Shown here: one piece after another, positions 27,696 through 28,726 of the stretch
How positions within the stretch are numbered: position 1 is the first letter of the stretch
How the letters are laid out: each line of letters opens with the position of its first letter
Origin: Parcubacteria group bacterium GW2011_GWD2_38_12
GTDB taxonomy: Bacteria > Patescibacteriota > Minisyncoccia > GWC2-36-17
Direction: 5' to 3'
Length of the DNA stretch: 64,000 bases
NCBI GenBank assembly: GCA_000992345.1
Contig: LBUA01000001.1
Coordinates: 13,542-77,541, forward strand
The notes under the pieces: generated by a model
What the model was told of the DNA's origin: nothing
Databases searched by the model: none
The model's input: only the letters and a program-made list of their open reading frames with translations
Translations under genes and position numbers: made by a program

Positions 27696-28726
27696 ATGTT
27701 AAACAAAATTTTCGGCGCATTCTCAAAGGATATAGGCATTGATCTGGGTACGGCAAATACCCTTGTTTATGTGCGTGGCAGGGGGATTGTCATTAATGAG
27801 CCGTCCGTTGTGGCTTTAAATACAAAAACCGGCCAATTGCTTGCCATTGGCAAAGAGGCAAAAAGAATGCTTGGCAAAACCCCGTCTCATATTTCTGCGG
27901 TAAGGCCGTTGATTGACGGCGTTATTTCCGATTTTGAAGTTACCGAGCAAATGCTGAAATTTTTTATTGATAAAGTACACAAAGAATCTTTTACTATTTT
28001 GCCCCGTCCGAGAGTGGTTATCGGTATTCCGTCTAATATCACCGAAGTGGAAAAAAAGGCCGTTGAGGATGCGGCTAGGAATGCGGGCGCTCGGGAAGTA
28101 TATCTTATCGAAGAGCCGATGGCCGCGGCAATAGGTTCGCGCATGGAAATTCATGAGCCGCAAGGGAATATGATAGTTGATATTGGCGGTGGGACGACGG
28201 ATGTCGCCATTATTTCTCTTGGGTTGTTTCAAGGAATATTAAGGTTGCGGGAGACAGATTGACGCACGATATAATTCAATACGCCAAAGACGAATATAAT
28301 TTGTTGCTTGGAGAAAGAATGGCCGAAGACATTAAAATTTCCATTGGTTCTGCTTATGAACTTTCAGAGCCGATAGAAACCATTATGAGGGGCAGAGATT
28401 TGGTGTCCGGACTGCCCAAAGAAGTCGTTGTTGATGACAGGGAAATAAGGCAAGTTTTGGATAAATCCTTGAAAATTTTGGTGGATACCGTGAAATCCGC
28501 CATTGAAGAGGCGCCGCCGGAATTGGTGGCGGATATTATGCATAATGGCATAGTGTTGGCTGGCGGAGGAAGCTTGCTTCGCGGGCTTGATAAAAGAATA
28601 GCCGAGGAAACACTGATGCCAGTTCGCGTATGCGAAGATCCGCTGACTGCGGTTGTTCGCGGCGCGGGCATTATTTTGGAGGATATTGAAAAGGTTAGGG
28701 ATATGATCGCAAATACCGGATTGTAA
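27696..28726 (+). pseudogene. mreB: MreB paralogue (copy 2) interrupted by a 1-nt frameshift near 28215-28232. The two ORFs 27696-28262 and 28259-28726 together give a full-length MreB.
   Basis: The upstream ORF ends ...[27 protein letters not shown]. Shifting frame at about 28222 gives ...[46 protein letters not shown], the canonical MreB continuation. Confidence 0.6.

Follow-up and report, generated by a model that had tools for sequence, protein, structure and literature searches.

The rod-shape operon headed by mreB2

The window, that is, the whole 64,000-nucleotide stretch of the Parcubacteria group bacterium GW2011_GWD2_38_12 contig analysed here, carries two genes coding for MreB. The first of them, mreB1, is located directly downstream of murA. 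The second, mreB2, is followed directly on its 3′ side, and on the same strand, by mreC, mreD and the gene of a class B PBP, which is the layout of the mreBCD-mrdA rod-shape operon. The genes, and the features found within mreB2, are the following:

19937..20944, + strand, mreB1, intact, 335 aa (NF010539, 467 bits)
27696..28222, + strand, 5′ part of mreB2 in its true frame, covering codon 1 through the second base of the Gly176 codon, identical to residues 1–175 of the intact protein P0001
28221..28223, + strand, deletion junction, at which GAGGTAT or equivalently AGGTATG is absent by alignment to other assemblies
28223..28726, + strand, 3′ part of mreB2 in the −1 frame, ending with TAA (ORF and profile evidence)
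28259..28262, + strand, TTGA stop/start overlap, in which the premature TGA falls on the earliest start of the downstream frame; it results by chance from the AGDRLT codons
28762..29565, + strand, mreC, 267 aa as called in sibling assemblies (TIGR00219, 95.3 bits against a cut-off of 92.75)
29579..30109, + strand, putative mreD (TIGR03426, marginal, 33.7 bits against a cut-off of 34.85; position and size fit)
30117..32069, + strand, mrdA, the PBP2 transpeptidase (TIGR03423, 578.6 bits against a cut-off of 455)

The mreBCD-pbp2 operon headed by mreB2 and the intactness of the first copy had both been proposed in the first-pass annotation, and both are confirmed by the profile matches, of which the MreD match is marginal. 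The gene order is the one known from the canonical mreB-mreC-mreD-mrdA elongasome operon accompanied by a second MreB (compare MreB, Mbl and MreBH of Bacillus). The intact 345-aa MreB2 aligns end to end with the solved MreB structures 8azg, 1jce and 4czf, as a canonical MreB does. Unlike in a canonical mreB-led operon, the leading copy is interrupted in one record, and its role in the CPR/Parcubacteria cell is read from sequence. The two paralogues are 49% identical, and this small Parcubacteria genome retains both of them, one beside murA and the other heading mreCD-pbp2. The gene located after pbp2 is greA, and no rodA is present there.

The ORF listing divides the mreB2 region of the + strand into two ORFs, 27696..28262 (188 aa) and 28259..28726 (155 aa), offset by −1. 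The frame break reported earlier is thus present in the deposited sequence, as the two ORFs and the homology continuing in the −1 frame indicate. The 5′ ORF runs on out of frame to the TGA at 28260-28262, and its 188-aa product, identical to KKQ52835.1, consists of MreB sequence followed by a 12-residue nonsense tail after the break. When its final 57 residues were searched against protein cluster representatives, no other protein with this tail was returned. The 3′ ORF can be called from the TTG at 28259 (155 aa) or from the ATG at 28319 (135 aa, identical to KKQ52836.1), and the −1 frame keeps the MreB homology up to the natural C-terminus, with the stop at 28726.

Both pieces match the MreB family significantly. 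In the Pfam MreB_Mbl profile (PF06723), the 5′ piece covers positions 1-165 with 267.9 bits and the 3′ piece positions 180-325 with 165.4 bits, compared with 464.5 bits for the intact P0001. With NCBIfam NF010539 (/TIGR00904), the pieces reach 280.4 and 174.6 bits, both below the 293-bit cut-off for the whole protein. Profile positions 166-179, which are 14 core positions of a conserved hairpin, are covered by neither ORF product. The window therefore encodes no single continuous polypeptide with the entire actin fold and its hairpin behind the phosphate-2 loop; all sibling assemblies have one.

Nature of the lesion

The search with a repaired protein led to P0001, a 345-aa MreB identical to both window halves. 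P0001 reads ISLGGMVVSRN across the break, while a repair by one base would give ISLGVVSRN. At the level of DNA, the site has the sequence TCTCTTGGAGGYATRGTTGTTTCA in about 20 further copies assembled from this groundwater population, as opposed to TCTCTTGGGTTGTTTCA in the window. The alignment to 10 independent contigs or assemblies carrying P0001 displays a 7-nt deletion: these contigs have TCTCTTGGAGG(T/C)ATGGTTGTTTCA in the place where the window has TCTCTTGGGTTGTTTCA. Across the junction, the window sequence is TCTCTTGGGTTGTTTC and its intact counterpart is TCTCTTGGAGGYATRGTTG. The lost bases belong to the codons of Gly176 (in part), Gly177 and Met178, residues of the beta-hairpin that follows the phosphate-2 loop. 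The spacing from DIGGGTT to AGD is 18 residues in all 96 homologues (96/96) in which it was measurable by pattern, and a −1 read-through of the window gives 16.

The deletion is clean, without Ns or junk sequence. The microhomology at the junction amounts to 1 nt, and neither direct nor inverted repeats able to explain a slippage deletion were found when the surrounding sequence was searched. There are no secondary lesions in mreB2, and apart from the deletion the gene encodes exactly P0001. The GGG at the break is a product of the junction, as the intact sequence is GGAGG.

The single-nucleotide frameshift of the first-pass annotation is therefore not borne out, as 7 nt are absent relative to all other assemblies. 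Its suggestion of an error in the sequence fared better: an error is the best supported class of cause, and only the proposed mechanism, a one-base slip in a homopolymer, falls away with 7 nt missing at a strain-variable site. The loss of seven bases at such a site agrees with a local error of assembly or curation and not with a slip in base calling. In the comparison with related genomes, which had also been put forward, the relatives have intact single ORFs and the roughly 20 sibling alleles hold the 7 extra bases.

Intact and truncated alleles in public records and independent assemblies

The truncated products KKQ52835.1 (188 aa) and KKQ52836.1 (135 aa) both belong to Parcubacteria group bacterium GW2011_GWD2_38_12 and lie on one contig of 154,523 nt. 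Among approximately 15 billion proteins, no truncated product was found in any other record. Intact P0001 is encoded on at least 22 contigs, and sibling GW2011 MAGs contribute four more KKP/KKQ accessions for it.

Over 21,038 nt, the window and the MEGAHIT contig L001 differ by 6 SNPs, all third-position and synonymous, and by one indel, the 7 nt of mreB2. Against MEGAHIT/JGI contigs, no other indels were found at 37307-58023 and 1-11665. The alleles 27881C, 28444A and 28615G of the window mreB2 are also carried by L004 together with an intact GAGGCAT, and, the deletion aside, the window mreB2 is base-for-base identical to this intact L004 allele.

The most direct comparison is provided by L044, a MEGAHIT assembly of SRR1658468 from BioProject PRJNA268031, a Rifle aquifer metagenome. 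Over 21 kb, this contig carries every allele distinguishing the window (27881C, 28444A, 28615G, 31856G, 31859T and 35623C), and its heptamer is intact. Among the loci covering position 35623, the C is found outside the window and L044 only in L042. L044 and the window differ only at 28194, at three serS SNPs and in the intact heptamer. Judged by these alleles, L044 is the same strain as the window, put together by another assembler and without the deletion. The two probably come from the same sample, and the shared SNPs suggest that SRR1658468 is sample D2. A genuine pseudogene should show its lesion again in independent sequence data of the same strain, and here, among the assembled sequences, the lesion is not reproduced.

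The site as a polymorphic spot and a contig break point

Outside its recombinant 5′ end, mreB2 has 7 positions that vary among near-identical alleles (nt 186, 499, 531, 534, 756, 927 and 1004). Two of these seven lie inside the 8-nt affected span, namely nt 531 T/C (GGT/GGC) and nt 534 G/A (ATG/ATA), for which the probability by chance is about 0.5%.

The same place is a break point of assembly. In ERZ27254730, a MEGAHIT assembly that shares 35623C, the contig L028 ends with ...TCTCTTGG, which is the exact left edge of the deletion, and the contig L042 begins 14 nt upstream of the L028 end and contains the heptamer intact. Further MEGAHIT contigs ending within mreB2 are L029 and L031. When the piece ending with TCTCTTGG is joined to a piece starting after the ATG/ATA position (GTTGTTTC), the result is the window sequence exactly. 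In any assembled allele, no SNP was found at the base following the L028 end. The ends of L028 and L042 were modelled with SNP and indel alternatives; several fit, one of them with the deletion allele in the reads, and the ends are taken only as marking a graph break point. The lesion is hence private to one assembly and lies at a strain-variable site and graph break point, which is the combination sought for a local assembly error.

A probable local assembly or curation error

With the same strain assembled independently without the gap, an assembly error is the most likely origin of the lesion. The comparison of assembled sequences makes it probable that the split of mreB2 is a local assembly or curation error in the deposited MAG and not biology, and most likely the organism has an intact 345-aa MreB2 heading mreB-mreC-mreD-mrdA.

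The proposed course of such an error is as follows. The setting would be a multi-allelic site in a mixed-strain population of low coverage. The contig pieces flanking the small variable core [A]GG[T/C]AT[G/A] would then be joined end to end, and the core would be dropped. One point counts against an error: no k-mer across a junction can be invented by a de Bruijn contig as such, so that the error would have to sit in scaffolding, gap closing or repair, and the step losing the bases may have been either IDBA-UD scaffolding or an automated Velvet-based repair. Two methods papers on the Rifle aquifer (PMC4736985; PMC5079060) describe 150-bp HiSeq reads assembled per sample by IDBA-UD (mink 40, maxk 100, step 20), followed by automated repair of short misassemblies, in which 1-kb regions are re-assembled with Velvet; one of the two cites Brown et al. 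2015 for extraction. From the GW2011 name, we infer that the window's own record was made by this IDBA-UD and Velvet-repair pipeline.

The frequency of comparable defects was assessed by tallying private defects in about 150 kb of presumed IDBA-UD loci and in about 250 kb of MEGAHIT/JGI loci, many of which overlap. IDBA-UD is here taken as the source of the per-sample ANAN16-1 scaffolds and of the GW2011/RIFCSP records at NCBI. The defects of the presumed IDBA-UD loci are listed below:

L003, 5978: 20-nt deletion in the BNR-repeat gene
L008, 7460-7485: 25 nt of unrelated sequence inserted in frr
L023, 2042-2160: two alleles of a 58-nt proS segment in tandem, with proS called as 155 + 264 aa
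L034, 3900-3936: N-gap (ten Ns) and extra sequence in murA
L012/L027, a sibling GenBank MAG, around pheS: losses of 34 nt and 30 nt

In the approximately 250 kb of MEGAHIT/JGI loci, no private indels were found, and the indels that are present there are shared between assemblies and intergenic. The genes frr, proS and murA are normally essential and single-copy, and therefore their defects cannot be viable dominant genotypes.

The window itself has a second private length difference, as 26 nt are absent at 11665 (region 11645-11670), where it holds one copy of ACGCTGATTGGCGCGGA and three MEGAHIT contigs and one scaffold hold two. The sibling MAG GCA_000992135.1 is without 30 nt that the window holds at 11665, which makes 56 nt relative to the MEGAHIT contigs, and it also lacks 34 nt at 10665 (10663-10700). 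Several contigs end at 10663 or 11665. The length differences in the pheS area are probably a second local assembly problem.

Errors of this class have been described before. According to Chen et al. (2020, Genome Res 30:315, PMC7111523), consensus stretches without any read support are especially conspicuous with IDBA-UD, and 13 of them were found in one 1.13-Mb CPR genome. As in the IDBA-UD local errors of that paper, and in those which Anantharaman et al. (2016) consider in their curation methods, the window holds a short consensus stretch unlike every other assembly of the population. Moreover, the lesion is placed at a strain-variable position, it breaks a conserved gene, the project used IDBA-UD with automated repair, and sibling scaffolds show the same class of defect. 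The likeness has two limits: the published class is defined by the absence of perfect read support, whereas the mreB2 case is known from assembled contigs, and it is a clean 7-nt loss and not a run of Ns, a duplication or an error in repeat number.

If the split is indeed an error of assembly, its meaning is mainly practical. The entries KKQ52835.1 and KKQ52836.1 very probably represent the two parts of a single intact MreB, which calls for a data-quality flag, and GW2011_GWD2_38_12 should not be scored as lacking the operon-leading MreB. Cases of this kind can be settled by a read-free route, in which the same haplotype is sought in independent re-assemblies of the population. The break in mreB2 brings nothing new to biology.

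A real and very recent deletion as a less likely explanation

Several of the observations would also be natural if the deletion were real. Under this explanation, a very recent 7-bp deletion would have produced a segregating null allele, or nascent mreB2 pseudogene, in the GWD2 strain, and the loss would be tolerated via the intact MreB1. The cleanness of the lesion, with neither Ns nor junk, speaks for a mutation and against an assembly error, as does its position on a coherent haplotype (27881C...28444A, 28615G), which is where a real mutation would be found. The end of L028 can be read in this way too. This contig, from the sample sharing 35623C, stops at the left edge of the deletion, as expected when intact and deleted alleles coexist in the reads, and its stop at TTGG is also predicted by deletion-allele reads in that sample, in which the next base would be G instead of A. 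Finally, an intact paralogue exists, and with this second MreB the loss of MreB2 could be tolerable.

These points are outweighed by the distribution of the allele. The same haplotype is intact in the independent assembly L044, and the truncated product is confined to one public record, compared with the 22 or more contigs holding the intact protein. Since the gene otherwise encodes P0001 exactly, with DNA equal to the intact L004 allele, the loss would have to be extremely recent. The deletion would have hit two of the seven polymorphic sites by a chance of about 0.5%, and scaffolds of this kind have a high background of private artefactual indels. The recent pseudogenisation considered in the earlier annotation is accordingly disfavoured by the intact haplotype of L044 and the single record with truncated products, yet it retains a small share of the probability and is best described as rather unlikely.

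Recent bacterial pseudogenes formed by small frameshifting deletions offer a close parallel, as mreB2 is likewise conserved, disrupted in frame relative to intact orthologues and backed by an intact paralogue. It is unlike them in having no secondary lesions, in the presence of the same haplotype intact elsewhere and in the restriction of the allele to a single record. If true, this explanation would describe a sub-strain of a groundwater Parcubacterium which very recently lost its operon-leading MreB and survives on the second paralogue. It would catch a CPR lineage in the course of reducing its elongasome, intact and null alleles being present together in one aquifer sample, and would make a modest case of a paralogue lost very recently from a reduced genome.

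Three improbable explanations: recoding, homopolymer error and split gene

Three further explanations were weighed beside the assembly error, and each of them retains next to no probability. The first is a programmed −1 ribosomal frameshift, or another type of recoding, which would yield full-length MreB2. The arrangement resembles programmed −1 frameshifting as in dnaX and the IS3-family transposases, in that two overlapping ORFs in −1 relation encode one protein family, and the open downstream frame homologous to the C-terminal half of MreB is the only point in favour. Unlike in those systems, there is no slippery heptamer, no structure and no conservation. The break reads TCT CTT GGG TTG TTT CAA and holds no zero-frame X XXY YYZ heptamer, and the downstream RNA folds with an MFE of −14.2 kcal/mol compared with a shuffle mean of −16.2 (z = 0.72), which gives no sign of a stimulatory structure. 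Among the 120 homologues listed, all are full-length or nearly so (329-354 aa), with 345-aa single ORFs being the nearest. The approximately 20 sibling alleles with 7 extra bases need no shift, so the shift is not conserved, and a read-through would leave the hairpin two residues short, with a spacing of 16 in place of 18. The recoding listed in the first-pass annotation as a less likely cause is thereby refuted by the missing heptamer, the z-score, the intact orthologues and the wrong hairpin spacing, and is exceedingly improbable.

The second explanation, a sequencing error of one base in the homopolymer context GGG/TTT, was the leading idea at the outset. The net frame change of −1 and the short G run at the break agree with it, whereas 7 nt and not 1 separate the window from every other allele, and the intact sequence has no such G run. 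In addition, 150-bp Illumina reads are not prone to homopolymer indels, and the window and the MEGAHIT contigs differ by no other 1-nt indel. With the 7-nt deletion evident from the alignment to ten contigs, this candidate was rejected as having hardly any chance of being correct.

The third, a functional split gene whose halves are translated separately, coupled via TTGA, and reassemble into the MreB fold, can draw on the overlap of the TTG at 28259 with the TGA at 28260-28262 and on a GGGAG 5 nt upstream, and it is nevertheless virtually dismissed, as these bases encode AGDRLT in the intact gene (GCG GGA GAC AGA TTG ACG) and are a chance by-product, the 14 core profile positions are missing, the first product bears the nonsense tail, and the arrangement is found in no other record.

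Strain variation in MreB2 and neighbouring genes

The codon lost in the deletion is itself variable between close relatives. Residue 178 of MreB2, which follows SLGG, is Met, Ile, Thr or Ala in P0001, P0002, P0005 and P0012, and the rest of the hairpin is invariant. The DNA alleles of residues 177-178 are GGT ATG, GGC ATG, GGC ATA and GGC ACG, as seen among intact alleles such as those of L001, L023 and L024.

Another change is located 27 nt upstream of the deletion site. At 28194, which is position 10499 of the L025/L044 locus, an A-to-G change private to the SRR1658468 MEGAHIT contig alters the universally conserved phosphate-2 loop from DIGGGTT to DIGGGAT (protein P0003, one contig only). 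The altered Thr presumably corresponds to a site of A22-resistance mutations in MreB of Caulobacter. With at least equal probability, the change stems from an error where coverage is poor. Two different private anomalies, the 28194 change and the 7-nt deletion, are thus found less than 30 nt apart in two assemblies of one strain.

Larger differences between the assemblies are seen upstream of mreB2. At the 5′ end of proS (26415-26493), 23 positions within 80 nt distinguish L004, L007 and L009 from the window, and the flanks are nearly identical. At 22415-25320, in the stretch of holB, the BNR gene and frr, the identity of L007 to the window falls to about 90%. By their sequence pattern, the divergent stretches of proS and of holB-BNR-frr look like recombination tracts between co-occurring strains.
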